Shown here in pieces: positions 3,586 to 64,000 of a stretch of DNA of 64,000 nt (position 1 is the stretch's first letter; each line of letters starts with the position of its first letter). The stretch is from Pseudomonadota bacterium (GTDB lineage: Bacteria > Desulfobacterota > Anaeroferrophillalia > Anaeroferrophillales > Tharpellaceae): contig JAYEGS010000244.1 in NCBI GenBank assembly GCA_034659215.1, positions 12,659 through 76,658 on the forward strand, in the 5' to 3' direction. Position numbers and translations under genes: made by a program. The notes beneath the pieces were generated by a model, which was not told where the DNA came from, made no database searches, and saw nothing but the letters and a program-made list of their open reading frames with translations.

Positions 3586-5466
3586 TCAGGCAGCCGCTGC
3601 ACTTTTCTGCAAGCGACAGGAGTTGCGGTTAAAAACTATTTTCTCAGGCGCAATCCCCTTACTGACCAGATGTTGTTTGTCATGCTTATTGTCAACAATA
3701 ATAAGATCGGCCAGAGAAGCACTCCAGTCAATAAAGCGCTCCAGAAGCCGCCCCAGATCACTCTCATGCCAGAGCCTTTGTGAAGTTTTAATAAAACTTC
3801 GTTGATAGAGAAATGTGGATTTGATATTGAGAAGATGGGCCCCCGCCAGAACTGCTATTCCCATGGAGTTGGGAATTGATACGATGACCCTTTCCGCCTG
3901 AAGCTCTTCCAGACTGCGAAAAACTTCCAGAAAAGGGGGCAGCGGCAGCTCAAAAGCTGCTCCCTTGCCAAGCTTGACATAAGAAACCGGTTTAAAGTTG
4001 ACAATATCTGGGTCATTTTCAGCCTGATTCGGGTCACAGGTCATAGTTACAACCGAATAAAATTCACCAGCAGCAGCAATGGAATCACAAGAGGTATTTA
4101 TAATCCCGTTTAGCTGAGGCCTGAGTTTGCGGCCCGCAACAACAACACTCCGGGGAGATGTCTGAGGGAGGTCAAGTTCAGTTGCCAACTCTTTTAGAAA
4201 TAGATCGTCCTTGTGCTGGGTCGAGAAAGCGGCAAGATAGGGCGCTATCGCCAAAGCCACCGGCCCCAGAGCGGTGATTGTCTGCAAGGCATCAAACAGG
4301 TTTCCATGACGAAGGTGCCTAAGAAACTGCTCGACAAAACGCCAACTCAAGTGGTGGCAGATTTTACAGGAAGCCGCAAAAGATCTCTCCTGCGCCAGCT
4401 GATCGTCGAGGGCACTATTAAGCGACCTCGTAAAGAGCTGACCAATCTCATCAACAATCACTCTTTCGATCGGGGAAAACTGACGCTTTTTTCCGGCCCA
4501 GCATATTTTATCGACAAACAGTTTGTAACGACTCGGCCAGCTTTTCGGTTTATCGTCGTTCGGTGAAAGCAGATTCTGTAAAAAAGCTCCCAGCAGATCA
4601 TTGCTGATTTTTTTGTCAACCCCGAAACGGTCTTTATAATAACTGTAGGCAATTTTATAGAAGCTATGCGCAAGTTTCAGTGAATTGCCGGAACTGCCGC
4701 CCGGAAAACAGCGACCATTCGCAATATTTATAAGGTACTCAGACAAGTTTTCACCGGCAGAAGTTTCTGTCCAAGCCGTAGCTATAAAACTTCCGCTATG
4801 GTCATCACTGCCGCCGGTAAATGTTTTCAGCCAGGGCTTATAACCAATCGGCAAAAGATCATGTTTTGCCGACAGATCGTCAATCAGTTGCGGGGTCAGA
4901 GAACTGCAGATCAGCTTAAAGAGATCAGCTGCCCGAGGATCACGACTACCGTTGATAGCTTCAAAATGGGTAAACAGGAGGAGAAGTTTTTCGAGATGTT
5001 CCCGGTCAAGCCGGTCATCAACCCGAAAAAGAGGATGGGCTACCGAGTGAATGATTCTCTCCCTATCGATGTACCCCTTAAGATCGTAAACATTTTTTCG
5101 CAGATAGCTCAACTCAGCAAACTGTTTTTCTGAAATATCATACACCAGAATATGCAGTTTAGCCGGCACTTCGGGAAAATAGGTGGTAAGTTCGCAACTT
5201 AAAAAAGTATCGGCAAGATGCGAGATTTCCAGCGCACCTTCAATTTTATTATGGTCGGTTATCGTAACATAGTCCATACCTGAAGACTTTGCCTTGCGAT
5301 ATATCTCAAGCGGCTCAACATAACTTTCCGGTGCTCCAATCCGTCTGAGAAACCATTCACTGGGGCGATTTGAATATTTGCTGTGAACGTGTAAATCGAC
5401 TCTGGTGGTCATATCTTTCTCAAAAAATTGTTTTTTCCAGGTTGGCCTGACTTCATCAACGCCCAT
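3586..5466 (-). CDS. PHP (polymerase/histidinol-phosphatase) domain-containing protein
   Basis: N-terminal DLHVHSKYS...ITDHN metal-binding histidine motifs typical of the PHP fold. The long C-terminal region is unassigned. Confidence 0.6.
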   Translation of the reverse strand: MGVDEVRPTWKKQFFEKDMTTRVDLHVHSKYSNRPSEWFLRRIGAPESYVEPLEIYRKAKSSGMDYVTITDHNKIEGALEISHLADTFLSCELTTYFPEVPAKLHILVYDISEKQFAELSYLRKNVYDLKGYIDRERIIHSVAHPLFRVDDRLDREHLEKLLLLFTHFEAINGSRDPRAADLFKLICSSLTPQLIDDLSAKHDLLPIGYKPWLKTFTGGSDDHSGSFIATAWTETSAGENLSEYLINIANGRCFPGGSSGNSLKLAHSFYKIAYSYYKDRFGVDKKISNDLLGAFLQNLLSPNDDKPKSWPSRYKLFVDKICWAGKKRQFSPIERVIVDEIGQLFTRSLNSALDDQLAQERSFAASCKICHHLSWRFVEQFLRHLRHGNLFDALQTITALGPVALAIAPYLAAFSTQHKDDLFLKELATELDLPQTSPRSVVVAGRKLRPQLNGIINTSCDSIAAAGEFYSVVTMTCDPNQAENDPDIVNFKPVSYVKLGKGAAFELPLPPFLEVFRSLEELQAERVIVSIPNSMGIAVLAGAHLLNIKSTFLYQRSFIKTSQRLWHESDLGRLLERFIDWSASLADLIIVDNKHDKQHLVSKGIAPEKIVFNRNSCRLQKSAAAA

Positions 5467-37254: not shown

Positions 37255-37400
37255 CGTTTTAAATGCGTATTCGGGCGTATTCCGCGTGGTATTCGAGGTA
37301 TTCCGGGGACACCATACTTAACTATTATTAAATATGGAACAATTATTGTAACTTTTTATCTAACCCGCAAACTCAGGCTACACAATCTCGATTTTCTTCG
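37255..37400. repeat. intergenic repeat modules (D: GTATTC tandem + ATTCCGGGGACACC; B-like TTGTAACT..TAACCCG..TCAGG)
   Basis: D matches 55040..55095 and the reverse complement of 57925..57975. The B-like part matches 27463..27495. Confidence 0.6.
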
Positions 37401-55039: not shown

Positions 55040-55100
55040 GCAAAGTTACCTCTAATTCCGGGGCTCGGAATTCCGGGGACACCTTACTTATCTTTCACAA
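55040..55100. repeat. repeat module D (tandem AATTCCGGGG(A/C)...) plus a solo TIR fragment at 55153..55170
   Basis: CTAATTCCGGGGCTCGGAATTCCGGGGACACCTTACTTA. GCTGAATAGTTGCG at 55156 resembles the family-B TIR. Confidence 0.55.
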
Positions 55101-56628: not shown

Positions 56629-56859
56629 ATGAAAACTATCTCGTTGAAACTTGATGATTCTATCTTTGGTGAGACCGAAGATATTATTGGCCGGTTGAAA
56701 CAATCCCGCAACCGATATATCAATGAAGCGGTAGATTACTATAACAAAATTCAAAAACGCAAAAAACTGGAGCAGGCATTGCAAAAAGAGTCTTTGGTGG
56801 TTAAAGAAGATTCTATGTCAGTTCTAAAAGAGTTTGAGGTTTTTGAATATGAAAGTTAA
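56629..56859 (+). CDS. antitoxin (RHH/MazE-like) of the MazF-family toxin
   Basis: 76 aa, overlapping the downstream PemK/MazF gene by 26 nt. Confidence 0.5.
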   Translation: MKTISLKLDDSIFGETEDIIGRLKQSRNRYINEAVDYYNKIQKRKKLEQALQKESLVVKEDSMSVLKEFEVFEYES

Positions 56860-57196
56860 ACAATTTGAGATCTGGCTTGCCGATTTAAACCCGCAAACTG
56901 GAACTGAACCCGGTAAAACCAGACCCGTCCTGGTTGTTCAGACAAACTTGCTCAACCAGGTTTCACATCCATCATCCCTGGTTTGCCCCCTGACAACCAA
57001 CATCAAGTTGAAATCTGAAATTTTACGAGTTCATATCGGATCTGAAGGTTCCGGCCTGAAAGAGAAGAGTGACGTAATGATTGATCAGATTCGGGCGATT
57101 GATAATCAGAGGCTTACCCGGAAAATCGGCCATTTACCGGAAGGATTGATAGGTAAATTAAAAGAAAATCTGATGATTATTCTGGATTTGGATTAA
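56834..57196 (+). CDS. mazF: type II toxin, PemK/MazF family endoribonuclease
   Basis: FEIWLADLNPQTGTEPGKTRPVLVVQTN...CPLTT matches the MazF/PemK family pattern. Confidence 0.75.
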   Translation: MRFLNMKVKQFEIWLADLNPQTGTEPGKTRPVLVVQTNLLNQVSHPSSLVCPLTTNIKLKSEILRVHIGSEGSGLKEKSDVMIDQIRAIDNQRLTRKIGHLPEGLIGKLKENLMIILDLD

Positions 57197-57215: not shown

Positions 57216-57494
57216 TTACTTGCGGGCAGCGCTTGCGTTGGGTTGAGTCAATTGTGAGGTTTGCTGTAATCTATCTGCAAGCCAGAGCTTGATAATTGAT
57301 TGTCGGGGCACACCGAGTCGCCTGGCTTCTTTATCCAGAGACTGGATCATCCAGAGTGGGAAATCAACATTTACCCTTTTTTGTTCCTGTTTAGGTCTTC
57401 TGGATTTTGCGAGATCAAGTTGTTTGAGAACACTCTTTCCCTCATCAAATTTGTGGTCAAAATCTTCAGCTTTCATATATTTTAATCTCCTCAT
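57216..57494 (-). CDS. brnA: BrnA-type antitoxin
   Basis: NVDFPLWMIQSLDKEARRLGVPRQSIIKLWL resembles the BrnA C-terminus. Overlaps the brnT stop by 29 nt. Confidence 0.6.
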   Translation of the reverse strand: MRRLKYMKAEDFDHKFDEGKSVLKQLDLAKSRRPKQEQKRVNVDFPLWMIQSLDKEARRLGVPRQSIIKLWLADRLQQTSQLTQPNASAARK

Positions 57495-57840
57495 ATCTTG
57501 CCCGGCGTACAGAGATAATTCTGGTGTTTTCTCCGCGATACGTGATGATACCTGACCAGTGTTTTTCAGCTATCTTGCCAACAACTAAAAACCTCTCTTC
57601 GTCTGTTGTTCTGGCCGGGATCTCCAATAGGTAGGAATCTTCCCAGAGTGCCTGGGCCTCAATAAAATCAATTCCATGTTTCTTTTTGTTGATGTATGAT
57701 TTGGAGGGGTCGAATTCGAATTTCATAGTATAATTATTATACCTAATAGATGTATTATTGTCAATAGTTTGAAGTTGAAGAAGGGGCAGGTCTTGAAATA
57801 GTTGGCGGTTGTAAGGTTCGCGTAAAGCCAGAACTTTCAC
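57466..57840 (-). CDS. brnT: BrnT-type ribonuclease toxin (DUF497)
   Basis: FEFDPSKSYINKKKHGIDFIEAQALWED...RIISVRRA matches the BrnT family. Confidence 0.6.
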   Translation of the reverse strand: MKVLALREPYNRQLFQDLPLLQLQTIDNNTSIRYNNYTMKFEFDPSKSYINKKKHGIDFIEAQALWEDSYLLEIPARTTDEERFLVVGKIAEKHWSGIITYRGENTRIISVRRARYEEIKIYES

Positions 57841-58075
57841 CCGCCATTTGTCAAGATGTGACCTCGATAGTGGTCGCGAAGCAAAGTTCGCGGTTGCTCG
57901 CTTCTACCTTTCATGGCAGGTTTTTCTGAGTTAGGTAAGGTGTCCCCGGAATTCGGTGTCCCCGGAATTCGGAAAACTTCACTCTTGCTCGGTGTGGGGA
58001 CAGACCTCCAGGCGCCGGCTGCAAGCCGGTTGCCGCTCTGAGCTCTGTCCCCTTCGAAGCCGGGCGAAGCCCATA
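57782..58075. repeat. composite of repeat modules E (57782..57905), D inverted and tandem (57925..57975) and A copy 4 (57985..58075)
   Basis: Matches 37805.., 55056.. (reverse complement) and 27561.. / 41021.. respectively. Confidence 0.6.
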
Positions 58076-58244
58076 TCAAAACTAACCGGTTTTAACTTAA
58101 CAGTGAGACGTTAACCGGGAATTTTCGATTAATTGATGATCCCCATGAACCCCATTAATTTAAAAAATAAGTTGAAAAATGGTTGGATTATTCGATAAAG
58201 AGGATTATGGTGGAAGAAATGAAATTTCAGGGATTGGGGAAGTT

Positions 58245-59183
58245 ATGTGGAGAAGTAGAAAATTTTTAGTTGTTTGCTTGGTAATAGTTGCGGTTTTGAT
58301 GCCGTTATTGGGTTGGGCCTGGGTGATTGGCGGGTTTGAGGTGCCGGCGAAGCCGGTGAAGGTGAAGCCCAATCCGCAGGCAGTTGTTGGTTCAGGTTCG
58401 GGGCGTTCAGGCGGGGGCTCGGTTCCAGCTTCGCAAAATGGTGCAGGTGCAGGCTCAAATTTTACTGATCCGGTAACCGGGATGGAGTTTATCTGGGTGC
58501 CGCAGGGCTGTTTTCAGATGGGAAGTCCGTCGGGAGAAAAGGGTCGAGATAGTGATGAAGGTCCGGTACACCGGGTTTGTCTTGATGGTTTTTGGATGGG
58601 GAAATATGAGGTAACGCAAGGTCAGTGGCAGAAGATTACGGGTAATAATCCGTCGAGGTTCAAGAAGGGTAATAACTATCCGGTGGAAAAGGTTTCCTGG
58701 AATGATTGTCAGGAGTTTATCAAAAAGCTCAATCGCCGGAGCGGTAAAAATTTCCGTCTGCCGACCGAGGCTGAATGGGAGTACGCCTGCCGGGCGGGGA
58801 CGACGACACCGTTTAGTTTCGGTTCGACGATTTCAACTGATCAGGCTAATTATGATGGCAACTACACTTATGGCCGTGGCCGCAAAGGGGTTTATCGGAA
58901 GTCGACTGTTTCGGTTGGTAGTTTTCGCCCCAACGCTTTTGGCTTGTATGATATGCATGGTAATGTCTGGGAGTGGTGCTCAGATTGGTATGATAGTGGT
59001 TATTATAAAAACAGTCCTGAGCAAAATCCGCAGGGTGCCAGTTCTGGTTCGAGCCGCGTTTTTCGCGGCGGCTGCTGGAGCAGCAGCCCGTGGTGCGTGC
59101 GTTCGGCTAATCGCGGCTGGCTCAGGCCGGGCAGTTACTTCAACATCCTTGGGTTCCGGCTGGTCTCCCCAGGACGGCGGTAG
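58245..59183 (+). CDS. DGR target (variable) protein: membrane-anchored FGE-sulfatase/C-type-lectin-fold domain protein
   Basis: TM segment, Gly/Ser-rich linker, then FGE-domain motifs (RVCLDGFWMGKYEVTQGQW, RLPTEAEWEYACRAGT, GLYDMHGNVWEWCSDWY). The C-terminal 42 codons are the VR. Confidence 0.75.
   Translation: MWRSRKFLVVCLVIVAVLMPLLGWAWVIGGFEVPAKPVKVKPNPQAVVGSGSGRSGGGSVPASQNGAGAGSNFTDPVTGMEFIWVPQGCFQMGSPSGEKGRDSDEGPVHRVCLDGFWMGKYEVTQGQWQKITGNNPSRFKKGNNYPVEKVSWNDCQEFIKKLNRRSGKNFRLPTEAEWEYACRAGTTTPFSFGSTISTDQANYDGNYTYGRGRKGVYRKSTVSVGSFRPNAFGLYDMHGNVWEWCSDWYDSGYYKNSPEQNPQGASSGSSRVFRGGCWSSSPWCVRSANRGWLRPGSYFNILGFRLVSPGRR
59056..59180 (+). other. DGR variable repeat (VR)
   Basis: 125 nt that align with 60976..61100. 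All 22 mismatches but one fall where the template copy has A. Confidence 0.8.
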
Positions 59184-59418
59184 CCGGGTTAGTAAGAAAG
59201 AGAGAAAAAGCAAGCCAGATAATGGAACGAAGCTTACAGTCAGGGGCGTGGTGGTTGGCCGAGCCGGTAGGCGGGACAACCACAACGACCCGGACAGTAA
59301 GCGGAGTGGGCAAATCAGAAAGGAAATAGTTGTTGGAGAGGTTTTTGACGAGACCGCGAAAGCGGTCGAAAATTTTGAGTTTTTTATTTTTTTGTGATGT
59401 TGGATTTAGGTATATTGT

Positions 59419-59919
59419 ATGCAATATCGACTGTTTACAATCCCCTGTTATGATGGCGAAGCTGAACTTGAAGAGCTTAATCGGTTTTTACGTTCGGTCA
59501 AGGTTCTTCAAGTTGAGCGTCAATTTTTTTCCCAAGATCGGGTCTGGCAGATGATGGTTGAGTATCAGGAGGGCGCTGATGGCGGCTCATCAGCCGTTCG
59601 TGGGGGACAGAAAAAAGTGCGGATCGATTATCGTGAGGTTTTGGAGCCGGATCAGTTTGCGCTTTTTGATCGCTTGCGGAGTTGGCGTAAAGAGCAGGCG
59701 GAAGTTGAAAAAATTCCGGCTTACGTGATTTTTACTAATGAACAGCTTGCAGCAGTTACCCGCCTGGATAAGGTTGGTTATGCCGCTCTTGAATCAATAG
59801 ATGGGATTGGTAAGGCCCGGCTGGAGAAATATGGAGCTCAAATCCTGGAAATTTGGCAAAATCAGACAGAGGGCGCGTATAATGAGGCGGTTGTAGACAA
59901 TGGTGCGGCGAGCCGGTAA
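59419..59919 (+). CDS. DGR accessory protein with C-terminal HRDC domain
   Basis: FALFDRLRSWRKEQAEVEKIPAYVIFTNEQLAAVTRLDKVGYAALESIDGIGKARLEKYGAQILEI fits the HRDC fold pattern. It lies between the target gene and the RT. Confidence 0.65.
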   Translation: MQYRLFTIPCYDGEAELEELNRFLRSVKVLQVERQFFSQDRVWQMMVEYQEGADGGSSAVRGGQKKVRIDYREVLEPDQFALFDRLRSWRKEQAEVEKIPAYVIFTNEQLAAVTRLDKVGYAALESIDGIGKARLEKYGAQILEIWQNQTEGAYNEAVVDNGAASR

Positions 59920-60916
59920 TCTCTACGAAAAAATTGCCGACCCGGATAATCTGCGTTCAGCTTATCTTAAGTCCCGGCGCGGCAAAGCGGCGCGGCCGGC
60001 GGTGCTTGATTATGCTCTCGATCTTGATAATAGTTTAAATAATCTGCGCCGTGGTTTACTTTCTTCGGCACAGTTAGAGCTGGGCGATTACCGTTATTTT
60101 ATGGTTTATGATCCCAAACCACGAATGATTTGTGCGGCCTCCTTTAATGAACGGGTTCTGCATCACGCCGTGATGAATGTTTGTGAACCGGCCTTTGAAA
60201 GTTACGCAATTTTTGATTCTTATGCCTGTCGCAAAGGTAAGGGTGGTGAACGGGCCGTAAAACGGGCGCAATATTTTTGCGGGAAATATCCCTGGTATCT
60301 AAAACTCGATATTCGTAAATATTTTGACTCGATTTCACATCAGGTTTTGCAGAAAAACCTGAGCCGGCGGTTTCGTGAAAAGCGCTTGCTCGATCTCTTT
60401 GCGGAAATCCTGGCAACCTATGAAACTTTTCCCGGTAAGGGTTTGCCGATTGGTAATTTGATCTCACAGCATCTGGCAAATTTTTATCTTGGCCGTTTAG
60501 ATCATTGGCTGCAAGAGAAGGTCGGGGTTAAGGGGTATCTTCGTTATATGGACGATTTTCTCATCTTCTCTCAAGATAAACAGGTTTTAAAGGGGTGGTG
60601 GACGCTTATTGAAACTTTTCTGGCGGCGGAACTGGGTTTGCGGGTAAAGAGTAATGGTCAGCTTAACCGCACGTCGTGTGGGATTCCTTTTCTCGGCTAT
60701 CGCATATTTGCGCAGAAGTTACGCCTTGGCTCACTTTCACGGCGGCGTTTTCAGTATAAATTCAAACTTTATGAAAAGTTCTATGAGAAAGGTGTCTGGG
60801 ATGAAACTGCATTACAAAAGCATGTTGAACCTTTGCTGGCTTTTGTGAGAAAGGCCGAAACCACGGGATTGCGATGTCGGGTGCTTGAGAATTCCGGGTT
60901 ATGTGACAATTACTGA
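59900..60916 (+). CDS. DGR-type reverse transcriptase
   Basis: Motif 4 GLPIGNLISQ (DGR-specific IGxxxSQ), motif 5 YMDDFLIF, motif 2-like RKGKGGERA, and a ~340-aa length. Confidence 0.85.
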   Translation: MVRRAGNLYEKIADPDNLRSAYLKSRRGKAARPAVLDYALDLDNSLNNLRRGLLSSAQLELGDYRYFMVYDPKPRMICAASFNERVLHHAVMNVCEPAFESYAIFDSYACRKGKGGERAVKRAQYFCGKYPWYLKLDIRKYFDSISHQVLQKNLSRRFREKRLLDLFAEILATYETFPGKGLPIGNLISQHLANFYLGRLDHWLQEKVGVKGYLRYMDDFLIFSQDKQVLKGWWTLIETFLAAELGLRVKSNGQLNRTSCGIPFLGYRIFAQKLRLGSLSRRRFQYKFKLYEKFYEKGVWDETALQKHVEPLLAFVRKAETTGLRCRVLENSGLCDNY

Positions 60917-60975
60917 ATTTTTGAGTTGCAAAGTAAGAGCTCTAACGCTATAAAAGTTACGGTCACTATTCATAA

Positions 60976-61100
60976 GGTTCGAACCGCGTTAATCGCGGCG
61001 GCAGCTGGAACAACAACCCGAGGAACGTGCGATCGGCTAATCGCAACAGGAACAGGCCGGGCAATCACAACAACAACCTTGGGTTCCGGCTGGTATCCCC
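60976..61100 (+). repeat. DGR template repeat (TR)
   Basis: A non-coding, AAC-codon-rich copy of the VR. The overlapping ORF 60926..61132 is a frame artefact. Confidence 0.8.
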
Positions 61101-61343
61101 AGCCCGGCGCAAGCGGTGATGGATTTCACTAAAGCGTCGTCCCGAATAGTGTCCGGTTCCGGTAACAGGCTTACATGGTATCTTTTTTGCCGGACAAAAT
61201 TGCTTGACCCCGAAACGGGTTGGTAGCTGGAGCCGGAGCCGGAGAAGCGGTCGGCGAAGATTCGTTTCGGGGGTTTGTTGACGAAAAGAGAACTCGAGTC
61301 AGAATTCTTCCTTTGGGAAGAGAGTAAAGAGAGAGGATATAAA

Positions 61344-63236
61344 ATGCGGAGTTTACGATGGGTAGTTAGAGCCGGGGTGTTGGTTTTATTTATTCTGATT
61401 TTTGCCGGCGGTGGGGTTTTTGCCGCCGACTACTGCGATATGGCGCGGGATATTGCGGAGCGGGCGGCGAAGACCTTTAACCGGGATCAGGAAAAAGGGA
61501 TCAAGCTTTTTATCAAGGCGCATAATCTTTGCAAAAAACCGCTCTATGCCTATAATCTCGGGATCGCCTATTTTGAGTATGGGAACCCGGCTGAGGCGGA
61601 GAAGTTTCTCGCCGAGGCGGTTAAGGGTGACGGCAGTCGGGCCAAGTGGCTTAATGACTATGCCGGGGTGATTCTGTTGCGCTCCGGTGATGCGAAAAAG
61701 GCACTCCAGATGGCGGAGAAAGCCTGGCGGTTGGCAAGCGATAGCAGCGGGTTGAAACCGGCGATCGCCGAGACTCTGGCTGAGGCGCAGATGCGAACCG
61801 GTCAAGGGCTTGTCGCCTTGAAAGGGATTAGATCGGCGGCGCTGAGTGCACCTTCTGAAAAACGGCTGCAAACCGCGATGCAGAAGATTGAGAGCCGTTA
61901 TATCCAGGCGGCCCTGCAACTGGTGCGTGAGGGGAAAAAGCGTGAAGGTTTTTTAGTTTTGGAGAAAGGGGCTGATTTTAGTGCCTTAACCGCGAAAACC
62001 TACTGTCTTGCCCTGGCCCGCGATGGAGCGGGTGAGAAGGCTTTGGCGGCGGCGGCGAAATTTGCCAGGCGTTATCCGGCTGAGCTTGATCAGGTCTGGA
62101 GTGAGGTGGTCGCGGCTGAGTGCGATCGGCTTTATCGCCGTTTTCAGGCGGGCGAGCGGGCGCAGGCGATGCAGATGGCGAAAGCTTTGCACGAAAAATA
62201 TGATTTTGATAAAGATTTCAAGGTGGCCTACGACAAACTTTTTGAGGCTTATCTTGCCGATGATGTGACGATTGCGGTGGCGCGGCCGCAAACCGGCAAA
62301 GCTTATGGCCGGGCCGCGTCCGGCGAGGTTGATCTGGAGCTGGCCCTGGCCTCGGCCTTTGGTGAAAAGAGTGAGTCCGGCGGGGAAAATATCAACCTTG
62401 GGACGGCCCTGGATCAGGATAAAAATATTCGTCAGGGCAAGCTTAAACGTAAACACGGAATCGCTCTGGTGATCGGGAATCAACATTACAAAGAGCACGG
62501 TTACGGGGTTCCTGACGTTAAATATGCCGGGCGCGACGTTGCGGTTATGAAAAAATATCTGATTAAGACCATGGGCTTTAAGGAAGATAATATCATTACT
62601 GCCCACGATGCCAGTTTCAGTAAAATGCGGAGTCTTCTGGGCACGCCGGAAAATCCGAAAGGCAAACTTTACAACTATGTTAAAGCTGAAAAAGGCCGGG
62701 CCGAGGTTTTTGTATATTATGTTGGTCACGGCTCACCCTCGGCAAAAAGTGGTGAGGCCTATCTGGTGCCGGTTGAAGCCGAGGTCGATTATCTTGAGAG
62801 CAGTGCCTATCCTCTAAGTCTTTTTTACCGCAATCTTGAATTTTTAGAGGCAAAATCGGTGATGGTCGTGCTTGACGCCTGTTTCTCCGGTGATTCCGCC
62901 GGCGGCACACTTTTTAAGGGGATCAGCCCGACAGTCTTGAAAAATGTTGAGCCGGTACGTGAACTCAAGCGAAACTCTTTTGTTTTGTGCGGGGCCGGTA
63001 AAAATCAGGTTTGTGCTTGGTATAAAGAGAAAAACCACTCGCTGATGACTTACTATTTTCTTGAGGCGCTGCAAGGTCGGGCCGATAGTAACGGTGATGA
63101 CAGTCTGAGTGTTGGCGAGGTTTATGAATATGTTCAGGATAAGGTTAGCAGTAAGACTCTGCGGGACTCCACCTCCCGTGAGCAGAACCCCAAAATTTTG
63201 GGTAATCTTGACCTTGTTCTGGCAGAGTTAGAATAG
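61344..63236 (+). CDS. secreted TPR-like / caspase (peptidase C14)-domain protein
   Basis: Signal peptide MRSLRWVVRAGVLVLFILIFAGGGVFAA. The C-terminal caspase-like dyad is YYVGHGSP (His) and VLDACFSGDS (Cys). The start is moved from TTG 61275 to the ATG at 61344, which has a GAGAGAGGA RBS. Confidence 0.6.
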   Translation: MRSLRWVVRAGVLVLFILIFAGGGVFAADYCDMARDIAERAAKTFNRDQEKGIKLFIKAHNLCKKPLYAYNLGIAYFEYGNPAEAEKFLAEAVKGDGSRAKWLNDYAGVILLRSGDAKKALQMAEKAWRLASDSSGLKPAIAETLAEAQMRTGQGLVALKGIRSAALSAPSEKRLQTAMQKIESRYIQAALQLVREGKKREGFLVLEKGADFSALTAKTYCLALARDGAGEKALAAAAKFARRYPAELDQVWSEVVAAECDRLYRRFQAGERAQAMQMAKALHEKYDFDKDFKVAYDKLFEAYLADDVTIAVARPQTGKAYGRAASGEVDLELALASAFGEKSESGGENINLGTALDQDKNIRQGKLKRKHGIALVIGNQHYKEHGYGVPDVKYAGRDVAVMKKYLIKTMGFKEDNIITAHDASFSKMRSLLGTPENPKGKLYNYVKAEKGRAEVFVYYVGHGSPSAKSGEAYLVPVEAEVDYLESSAYPLSLFYRNLEFLEAKSVMVVLDACFSGDSAGGTLFKGISPTVLKNVEPVRELKRNSFVLCGAGKNQVCAWYKEKNHSLMTYYFLEALQGRADSNGDDSLSVGEVYEYVQDKVSSKTLRDSTSREQNPKILGNLDLVLAELE

Positions 63237-64000
63237 ATGGGGAATTGTTTGCAAAATCTTGTTGCAATCTTGTTTTTGGGGTGCTTGTTACTTCTTGTCG
63301 GTTGTCATCCGGCGGCGGTTGAGACGCGGAGTCTTGGTGGTTTTAGCGACAGTTATGCCGAGGTCGTGCTTAAGCTTTGTCAAAGTAGTGTGAAAAAAGG
63401 TGAGATGGTTGCGGTCAGTGCCTTTTATGATGGTGATAACGGCGATTTTACCGCTTTGGGCGATCAATGGCGCGACCGGGCCGAGGCGGCGTTGGCCGGA
63501 GGTGATATTAAAGTTCGGGCGGTACGCGATATGGGCTTGATTCTTGATAGCCTGGAGAGTGCCGATAGCGACAGAGATTTTAACGAAAGTCAAATCTGGC
63601 GTGCAAGCGGCAGTGACTATCTTTTGGTTGGGCGTTACTATCTCTATGAGGGCGGCGATGAAAAAGAGCCGGACTATCTTGAGCTCAAGATAAATCTCTT
63701 GAAAAATTGTGATCGAACCGTAGTCAAAGCGACGACCTGGCGCACTAAATTGACGCCGGGCTGGCAATCGCGGGCGGCAGTTATTCGGGGCAATATTTAC
63801 CATAAAGCGATTGAGGTGGTGGGGCCGGGGTCTGCGAGTGCGGGGCCTGAACTTAAAGTTGAGCTGGATCGCAATCCTCCTTGCTACCCCGCCGGTGCGA
63901 GAATTTCGTTAAAGATTAAAAGTGAGCCCGGCGTCTATCTCTATATTTTGAATATTGCGGCCGATAATTCAGTAACCATCAATTATCCCAATCGCTTTTT
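63237..64000 (+). CDS. lipoprotein, 5' portion (runs off window end)
   Basis: The ATG directly abuts the previous stop (TAGATGG). Lipobox LLLLVGC. An open frame of more than 760 nt continues to the window edge. Not in the ORF track because it is incomplete. Confidence 0.4.
   Translation, partial: MGNCLQNLVAILFLGCLLLLVGCHPAAVETRSLGGFSDSYAEVVLKLCQSSVKKGEMVAVSAFYDGDNGDFTALGDQWRDRAEAALAGGDIKVRAVRDMGLILDSLESADSDRDFNESQIWRASGSDYLLVGRYYLYEGGDEKEPDYLELKINLLKNCDRTVVKATTWRTKLTPGWQSRAAVIRGNIYHKAIEVVGPGSASAGPELKVELDRNPPCYPAGARISLKIKSEPGVYLYILNIAADNSVTINYPNRF

Follow-up and report, generated by a model that had tools for sequence, protein, structure and literature searches.

Evidence for a chromosomal diversity-generating retroelement of the HRDC type, with adenine-specific repeats and a structured RNA downstream of the template

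What does it mean that the 3′ end of a lectin-fold gene recurs, altered, just past a reverse transcriptase (RT) gene in a bacterial chromosome? The case comes from a metagenome-assembled genome (MAG; GenBank assembly GCA_034659215.1, contig JAYEGS010000244.1), of which we analyzed a stretch of 64,000 nucleotides (nt), hereafter the window—a chromosomal region with the housekeeping genes LeuRS, holA, panBC, and SelA. We are highly confident that window positions 58245..61276 hold a chromosomal diversity-generating retroelement (DGR) that has diversified the gene next to it. The downstream copy is read as the template repeat (TR) and the gene copy as the variable repeat (VR), and adenine-specific divergence between them, a DGR-type RT, and a lectin-fold target all agree, as an initial annotation of this DNA had proposed. 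That annotation took the element to be complete at 58245-61102, leaving out an accessory HRDC gene, an inverted repeat that follows the VR, and a structured RNA that extends to about 61276 (Table 1). By its gene content and sequence motifs the element is an HRDC-accessory DGR with an FGE-type target, a class that is already known; one more chromosomal example of a class catalogued in the thousands changes little by itself. What goes beyond routine annotation is only the RNA downstream of the TR, which is a modest new detail, and the data on natural diversification.

Adenine-specific repeats beside a DGR-type reverse transcriptase

How do the two copies differ? A repeat finder paired 59046-59184 with 60976-61114, at an offset of 1930. 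The initial annotation was right that the repeat exists but placed the gene copy 10 nt off (59056..59180 against 60976..61100, offset 1920); in that register the two stretches mismatch at 96 of 125 nt and are unrelated. At the corrected register, a mismatch table by TR base gives 22 mismatches between 60976..61100 and 59046..59170, 21 of them with A in the downstream copy, which reproduces the earlier count and leaves no even spread over the four TR bases. The TR and VR strings quoted at the time were likewise exact (in frame, the TR reads AAC AAC AAC CCG AGG AAC ... AAT CAC AAC AAC AAC), and the description of the repeat as the last 125 nt of the gene holds approximately, the VR ending 11 nt before the target stop codon (59181..59183). 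Over the 127 nt of clean homology, 21 of the 34 TR adenines are changed vs. 1 of the 93 other bases (Fisher's exact test, P = 3.5e-14). Past this boundary a weaker similarity continues for 12 nt (59173..59184 and 61103..61114), with four mismatches, three of them at TR cytosines. In the frame of the target, the TR presents AAC, AAT, AGG, and AGC codons, and 31 of its 34 adenines stand at codon positions 1-2. A stop codon can be reached from none of the 18 variable codons, and about 8e17 protein variants are possible. No further VR-like copy was found on either strand of the window when the TR was scored at its non-adenine positions, both at full length and as three 45-nt pieces.

What kind of RT lies between the two copies? 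Its best match among solved structures is the Bordetella phage bRT (PDB 8ub7, E = 7.6e-40, 286 aligned residues); the best group II RT match in the PDB is 24 orders of magnitude weaker (E = 5e-16). The sequence motifs named in the initial annotation, LPIGNLISQ and YMDD, are both present in the RT open reading frame (ORF), the latter within RYMDDF. IGNLISQ aligns with IGSLTSQ of bRT and with QGGPLSP of group II RTs, and the residues of IGNLISQ and YMDD are invariant in 27 relatives. The RT shares the RVT_1 palm/fingers fold and a YxDD catalytic motif with group II and retron RTs, from which it differs in motif 4 (IGxxxSQ, not QGxxxSP), in having no maturase or endonuclease extension (338 residues), and in having no intron or msr/msd RNA nearby. 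Its scores against hidden Markov models of other RT families, a comparison that had been proposed at the outset, lie far below the curated cut-offs (107 bits vs. 300 for the group II model TIGR04416, 52.5 vs. 235 for the retron model NF038233, and 58 vs. 200 for the defense-associated RT, or DRT, model) and do not support a group II or retron grouping. Rfam searches (whole window at gathering score; 58900..61400 at E <= 1) returned no group II intron or retron RNA. The NCBI records for the three genes (MEA1923166-8) annotate them separately and do not flag a DGR.

The HRDC gene precedes the RT gene and overlaps it by 20 nt (59900..59919). An avd-like ORF is absent from the cassette, whose one remaining gap (59184..59418) is non-coding according to the ORF list; by analogy with Avd-containing DGRs, the HRDC protein might substitute for Avd.

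Table 1. Features of the retroelement and the two genes that follow it (window positions)
Feature	Position	Strand	Details and basis
Target (variable-protein) gene	58245..59183	+	ORF list; Pfam FGE-sulfatase; PDB PvdO, FGE, TvpA 2y3c
N-terminal hydrophobic segment FLVVCLVIVAVLMPLLGWAWVIGG, RSRK before it	58263..58334	+	Translation
Variable repeat (VR)	59046..59172	+	Encodes GSSRVFRGGCWSSSPWCVRSANRGWLRPGSYFNILGFRLVSP; alignment and mismatch table; aligns to the TvpA C-terminal variable region
Post-VR segment	59173..59184	+	8/12 identical to the post-TR sequence; first base G vs. TR C; candidate discriminator of the initiation-of-mutagenic-homing (IMH) type
Long imperfect inverted repeat, GGGAC-containing apex	59232..59302	.	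About 50 nt after the target stop codon; DNA fold
GC hairpin GACCGC-GAAA-GCGGTC, then TCGAAAATTTTGAGTTTTTTATTTTTTT	59345..59393	+	Sequence; promoter scan; relatives
HRDC accessory gene, 166 residues	59419..59919	+	Beta-alpha-beta-beta domain at residues 1-50, disordered linker, HRDC at about 71-155
DGR reverse transcriptase, 338 residues	59900..60916	+	Pfam RVT_1; IGNLISQ at residues 184-190; YMDD at 216-219
Template repeat (TR)	60976..61102	+	Non-coding, intergenic; 34 adenines; 60 nt downstream of the RT stop codon
Conserved structured RNA, about 150-170 nt, directly 3′ of the TR	61103..61276	+	Alignment, RNAalifold, covariance model
TPR and caspase (Peptidase_C14) gene	61275..63236		Directly downstream of the DGR; export-type N-terminus
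DUF4384 gene	63237..64000		Runs off the window; lipoprotein-like LVGC signal

Architecture, natural diversification, and post-TR RNA among relatives

How widespread is this arrangement, and does it diversify its targets in nature? The RT family comprises more than 6900 hits at E <= 1e-20, from which we sampled 80 species-level genome loci, mostly belonging to the Thermodesulfobacteriota, Verrucomicrobiota, Bacteroidota, Planctomycetota, and Hydrogenedentota. A homologous HRDC gene lies just upstream of the RT in 74 of these 80 loci, an FGE-type target lies upstream in 56, and an adenine-biased TR/VR pair is found in 58; the TR is directly downstream of the RT in 54 (median gap, 14 nt). Many contigs among the remaining loci are truncated. 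The order target(VR)-HRDC-RT-TR is a conserved and widespread architecture. It is also an active one. In a Syntrophales element with the same architecture (P0067), whose RT is 54% identical to that of the window, the RT is identical in ten contigs from different samples, and these contigs show 0-1 differences over about 4 kb outside the VR. Yet they carry 8 distinct VRs, and 32 of the 33 variable columns fall at TR adenines. VR diversity on near-identical contigs shows that the DGR class with the target-HRDC-RT-TR architecture is active in nature.

For the element in the window itself, an exact look-up of the RT protein found none on record. The sole other assembly, reached through the HRDC protein, is Logan SRR26901930 (locus L001), which is 99.96% identical over 4975 nt. 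It departs from the window only in a single RT codon (window 60518..60520, L001 1574..1576), where AAG has become GAT and gives K207D; that two bases should differ within the same codon while all else is identical is odd. A scan of Joint Genome Institute metagenomes with a 69-nt adenine-masked TR pattern returned no matches.

What lies directly downstream of the TR? Throughout the family, the TR is followed by a structured RNA whose first helix, H1, begins exactly where TR/VR homology ends (CCAG followed by C) and usually carries the apical loop YGGAUG. A single-stranded UGACCCGGAC..AUCC segment comes after H1, then a helix H2 of varying length with CAAA behind it, and then a long-range stem, H3, that encloses GCUGGUAGC, a GGAUG-capped hairpin (H4), and CGAAGG. 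In the window, H1 pairs 61105-61110 with 61134-61139 and 61115-61119 with 61126-61130 around the loop UGGAUU; H2 pairs 61156-61161 with 61191-61195 and is followed by CAAAA; and H3 pairs 61208-61220 with 61260-61271, enclosing GGUUGGUAGC, H4, and CGAAGAUU. An RNAalifold consensus from a 36-locus alignment has compensatory changes in 22 of 24 pairs. Tested on this alignment, the structure (34 pairs in 5 helices) has a standard pair in 89% of cells, vs. 34-46% when partners are slid by 1-3 columns, and a covariation score of 0.635, vs. at most 0.168 when slid; none of 500 shuffles reached the observed score. A covariance model (150 positions, 31 pairs) matched 78 of 81 related loci, about 45 of them outside the seed alignment, in each case once per locus, on the + strand, and right after the TR. 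Its sole match in the window is 61095..61276 (74.4 bits, E = 3.6e-15). Rfam searches of the same scope as above gave no match to this RNA, the curated RT-associated motifs included, and a tRNA scan found none. Weinberg et al. (2017) reported RNA motifs in the neighborhood of RT genes, including one in the DGR of phage BPP-1, and the cryo-electron microscopy study of the BPP-1 ribonucleoprotein (RNP) surveyed RNA elements in Avd-containing DGRs only. The post-TR RNA marks the 3′ boundary of elements like the present one, could be made into an Rfam-style model for annotating HRDC-type DGRs, and could also guide reconstitution experiments on an Avd-independent mechanism. A Desulfobacteraceae locus (L005) carries the full-length RNA twice, with the second copy (4269..4413, 89.5 bits) about 1.5 kb farther downstream, a pattern that suggests either another TR or duplication of the cassette end.

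The same boundary separates TR from VR. The GC-rich 3′ ends of the two copies are identical save for one TR adenine, and the first non-adenine difference comes directly after CCAG (TR C61103 vs. VR G59173). This difference holds family-wide, with AG-C-UCA in the TR vs. AG-G/T-TCA in the VR in at least 40 related loci, and is, as far as sequence comparison goes, the best candidate for an asymmetry of the IMH/IMH* type. The initial annotation had instead singled out the C/A difference in GGGTTCCGGCTGGT(C/A)TCCCCAG as an IMH/IMH* pair. That site is TR A61095, opposite C59165 in the VR; because it is a TR adenine it reads as mutagenesis rather than as an IMH/IMH* marker, and it puts the limit of mutagenic transfer no farther than 8 nt from the CCAG boundary.

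Beyond the VR lies the long inverted repeat. The DNA fold of 59150..59420 has z = -5.9, and none of 200 shuffles is equally stable; the post-VR hairpins of relatives are long as well (median z, -2.4; 22 of 39 below -2), with apices that recur as GAGGGACGAG or GGCGGAGCC. DGRs are known to require an inverted repeat downstream of the VR to recognize their target (PMC3240598), and the one in the window is a candidate hairpin or cruciform for that role. A pairing of the apical GGGACG with the single-stranded CCGUCCC of the post-TR RNA was considered and set aside: the two are complementary in many loci, but GGCGGAGCC apices do not fit and inspection by eye revealed no clean covariation. In L023 (Candidatus Anammoxibacter), the spacer after the VR hairpin contains a long run of GGTAATTGGTTATTGG-type tandem repeats (about 4150..4260). 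Farther on, before the HRDC gene, a GC hairpin with a T-run (59352..59393) overlaps a promoter-like TTGACG-17-GAAAAT, and the same hairpin followed by TCGAAAATTTT precedes the HRDC gene in many relatives. Tentatively, it looks like a terminator of the target gene, with a promoter as the alternative; in a promoter/terminator scan, counts were not above shuffled expectation.

How does the element compare with those already described? HRDC DGRs are the "Architecture C" of Wu et al. (2018), and FGE-sulfatase targets their category b; these authors counted 14 HRDC DGRs among 372 and assigned them to the same clade as the Treponema element. By comparison, the present RT family numbers more than 6900 hits, with the HRDC gene in 74 of the 80 sampled loci. 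In Treponema denticola, too, the HRDC gene overlaps the RT gene (PMC4891356). The window shares with these elements this overlap, a chromosomal rather than phage-borne location, and an FGE-fold C-type-lectin target with a C-terminal VR, which aligns to TvpA (2y3c) through the VR. It differs from them in the order target-HRDC-RT-TR, with the TR after the RT; in the absence of avd, which about half of Wu's HRDC DGRs also carry; in an apparent membrane anchor on the target where TvpA has a lipobox; and in having a single target within 64 kb. The likeness to BPP-1 (mtd-avd-TR-brt) extends to a homologous RT (8ub7), adenine-specific TR-to-VR transfer, a C-type-lectin-fold target, a structured RNA downstream of the TR (one that the BPP-1 RNP requires), and an inverted repeat after the VR. 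However, the accessory protein is HRDC rather than the Avd pentamer, the TR follows the RT rather than preceding it, and the host is a bacterial chromosome, phage RTs being at most 40% identical to the RT of the window. The RNA, without an Rfam counterpart, has H1 and H4 (usually with YGGAUG loops) and a long-range stem that are defined by covariation alone. The inverted repeat is imperfect, about 30 bp long, and some 50 nt from the VR, compared with 8 bp, a GRNA loop, and 4 nt in BPP-1.

Alternative explanations and a possible mechanism

Could the two copies have arisen in some other way? That the 3′ end of the gene was simply duplicated in part, diverged by neutral point mutation, and came to lie by chance beside an unrelated group II, retron, or defense-associated RT seems to us next to impossible. 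The RT does have weak, sub-threshold matches to the group II, retron, and DRT models, and NCBI annotates it only as "reverse transcriptase/maturase family." Its scores nevertheless stay far below the cut-offs, Rfam finds no group II or retron RNA, and dozens of species share the TR/VR/HRDC/RT layout; above all, the mismatch table, with its 21:1 ratio at adenines though only 27% of TR bases are adenine, refutes neutral divergence. If the repeats do belong to a DGR, its real substrates might still be found in other parts of the genome, the adjacent FGE gene being a minor target or one of several. Remote targets are present in T. denticola (PMC5758913), and two or three VRs accompany one TR in several relatives (L023, L027, L031, L044, L047, L048, and L066). 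We consider this unlikely for the window, where no second VR turned up on either strand and the adjacent VR already carries its 21 adenine-site changes.

A DGR that was once active and is now a fossil, its VR scarred by past mutagenic homing and its cassette no longer diversifying, is a somewhat stronger contender, to which we give a lesser but appreciable share of belief. It would account for several observations that weigh against a functioning element. The VR is the same in the window and in L001, two independent assemblies. The post-TR RNA of the window scores below most relatives (74 bits vs. up to 133), and at the base of its H1, as in its closest relative, L002, a U:A pair that is nearly invariant in the other loci is missing. 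One TR/VR mismatch, C61066 vs. T59136, is not at an adenine. On the mechanism, we found no report of biochemistry on an HRDC-type DGR in the literature searched, and BPP-1 is the model from which the roles assigned below to HRDC, H1, and the inverted repeat are drawn by analogy. Against the loss of function stand three intact ORFs, an RT that keeps every invariant residue, including the catalytic YMDD, a TR that keeps its 34 adenines in a stop-free AAY design, and a post-TR RNA that matches the model over its full length; moreover, minority variants would be invisible in two consensus assemblies. Since there are only these two assemblies, with identical VRs, we infer current activity from the intact parts, and on that basis the DGR in the window is probably, though by no means surely, active today.

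How might a DGR of this kind work? In the scheme we propose, the RNA of the TR, together with the structured segment that extends to about 61276, would be bound by the RT, probably with the HRDC protein. The RT would copy the TR into cDNA, inserting random nucleotides opposite template adenines, and the cDNA would replace the VR in the 3′-terminal part of the target gene. Each replacement could re-randomize the ligand-binding face of an FGE/C-type-lectin domain at as many as 18 codons; an N-terminal membrane anchor would keep this domain outside the cytoplasm. The direction of transfer, from TR to VR only, would be set at or beyond the 3′ boundary, by CCAG followed by C in the TR vs. CCAG followed by G in the VR and by the post-VR inverted repeat. 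In BPP-1, a TR:Sp duplex places the priming adenosine beside the first template base; H1, whose base abuts the homology boundary, may be a cis-priming duplex of the same sort. The borrowed elements of this scheme (HRDC in place of Avd, priming by H1, and the inverted repeat in target recognition) range, by our reckoning, from rather doubtful to about an even chance. More far-reaching, and on balance rather doubtful, is the picture in which HRDC-type DGRs, the present one included, use an Avd-free RNP scaffolded on the post-TR RNA, with H1 as the cis-primer, and in which the Thermodesulfobacteriota cassette acts with an exported caspase and a DUF4384 protein as a diversified sensor-effector module.

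The target protein and the neighboring genes

What is being diversified, and in what company? The target ORF spans 58179..59183, and the NCBI call starts at ATG 58179 (334 residues). The likelier start appears to be ATG 58245, which we favor because GGGGAAG lies 6 nt upstream and because translation then opens with MWRSRK and a hydrophobic segment of about 24 residues. The positive-inside rule is well established, and the segment is predicted to be a signal-anchor that leaves the lectin domain outside the cytoplasm. Of the earlier proposal that the protein is membrane-anchored and probably surface-exposed, the anchor stands as a prediction and the surface exposure is not supported. Residues 103-329 match Pfam FGE-sulfatase (E = 4.2e-55), and the C-terminus, VR included, aligns with the variable region of T. 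denticola TvpA (PDB 2y3c); the variable residues would accordingly map to the C-terminal part of an FGE/C-type-lectin fold, as first suggested. The catalytic cysteine pair of FGE (C-x4-C) is missing. Where FGE has CHDSYC, the target has SSSPWC and the TR NNNPRN, so that the protein, judged by these residues, has the FGE fold and is not an FGE enzyme. The cysteine within SSSPWC and a second VR cysteine four residues upstream are both products of adenine mutagenesis.

The genes directly downstream encode a TPR protein with a caspase domain and a DUF4384 protein. The former scores 70.7 bits against the NCBIfam model "caspase, EACC1-associated type," below its curated cut-off of 140 bits. The cassettes of L002, L008, L011, L020, L081, and L082-L091 have caspase and DUF4384 genes beside them too, in varying order. 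Earlier work on bacterial conflict systems (Kaur et al., 2020, PMC7159879; Dore et al., 2024, PMC10907252) linked DGR-diversified lectin domains with caspase-type peptidases. The window resembles these systems in that a short, lectin-only DGR target stands beside a Peptidase_C14 gene, a linkage that recurs in relatives. It differs from them in that no MoxR, vWA, or STAND NTPase gene occurs in the flanks examined and in that the target, caspase, and DUF4384 proteins all have export-type signals. These signals suggest an extracytoplasmic rather than an intracellular module, the coupling of its parts being putative. The recurring link with an exported caspase and DUF4384 offers an entry point to what the diversified lectin senses.

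Although the MAG bears the label "Pseudomonadota bacterium," the closest relatives of its RT, HRDC, and caspase proteins belong to the Thermodesulfobacteriota (Desulfuromonadales, Syntrophales, and Desulfobacterales), and the label may be outdated. The DGR is immediately preceded by two toxin-antitoxin pairs (56629..57196 and 57216..57840), one comprising a MazF/PemK-type toxin with a small upstream ORF and the other a BrnT toxin with a CopG/BrnA-type antitoxin on the minus strand. A 16-mer, GGTGTCCCCGGAATTC, occurs four times in intergenic DNA (0.03 expected), at 37298-37313 (-), 55068-55083 (-), 57939-57954 (+), and 57955-57970 (+), the last two copies standing in tandem just upstream of the DGR target. 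Its copies at 55043-55093 and 57929-57979 make up a 51-nt inverted pair, which brackets an aminotransferase gene together with the two toxin-antitoxin pairs, and the GGTGTCCCCGGAATTC repeat looks like one of the repetitive extragenic palindrome (REP) or miniature inverted-repeat transposable element (MITE) type.

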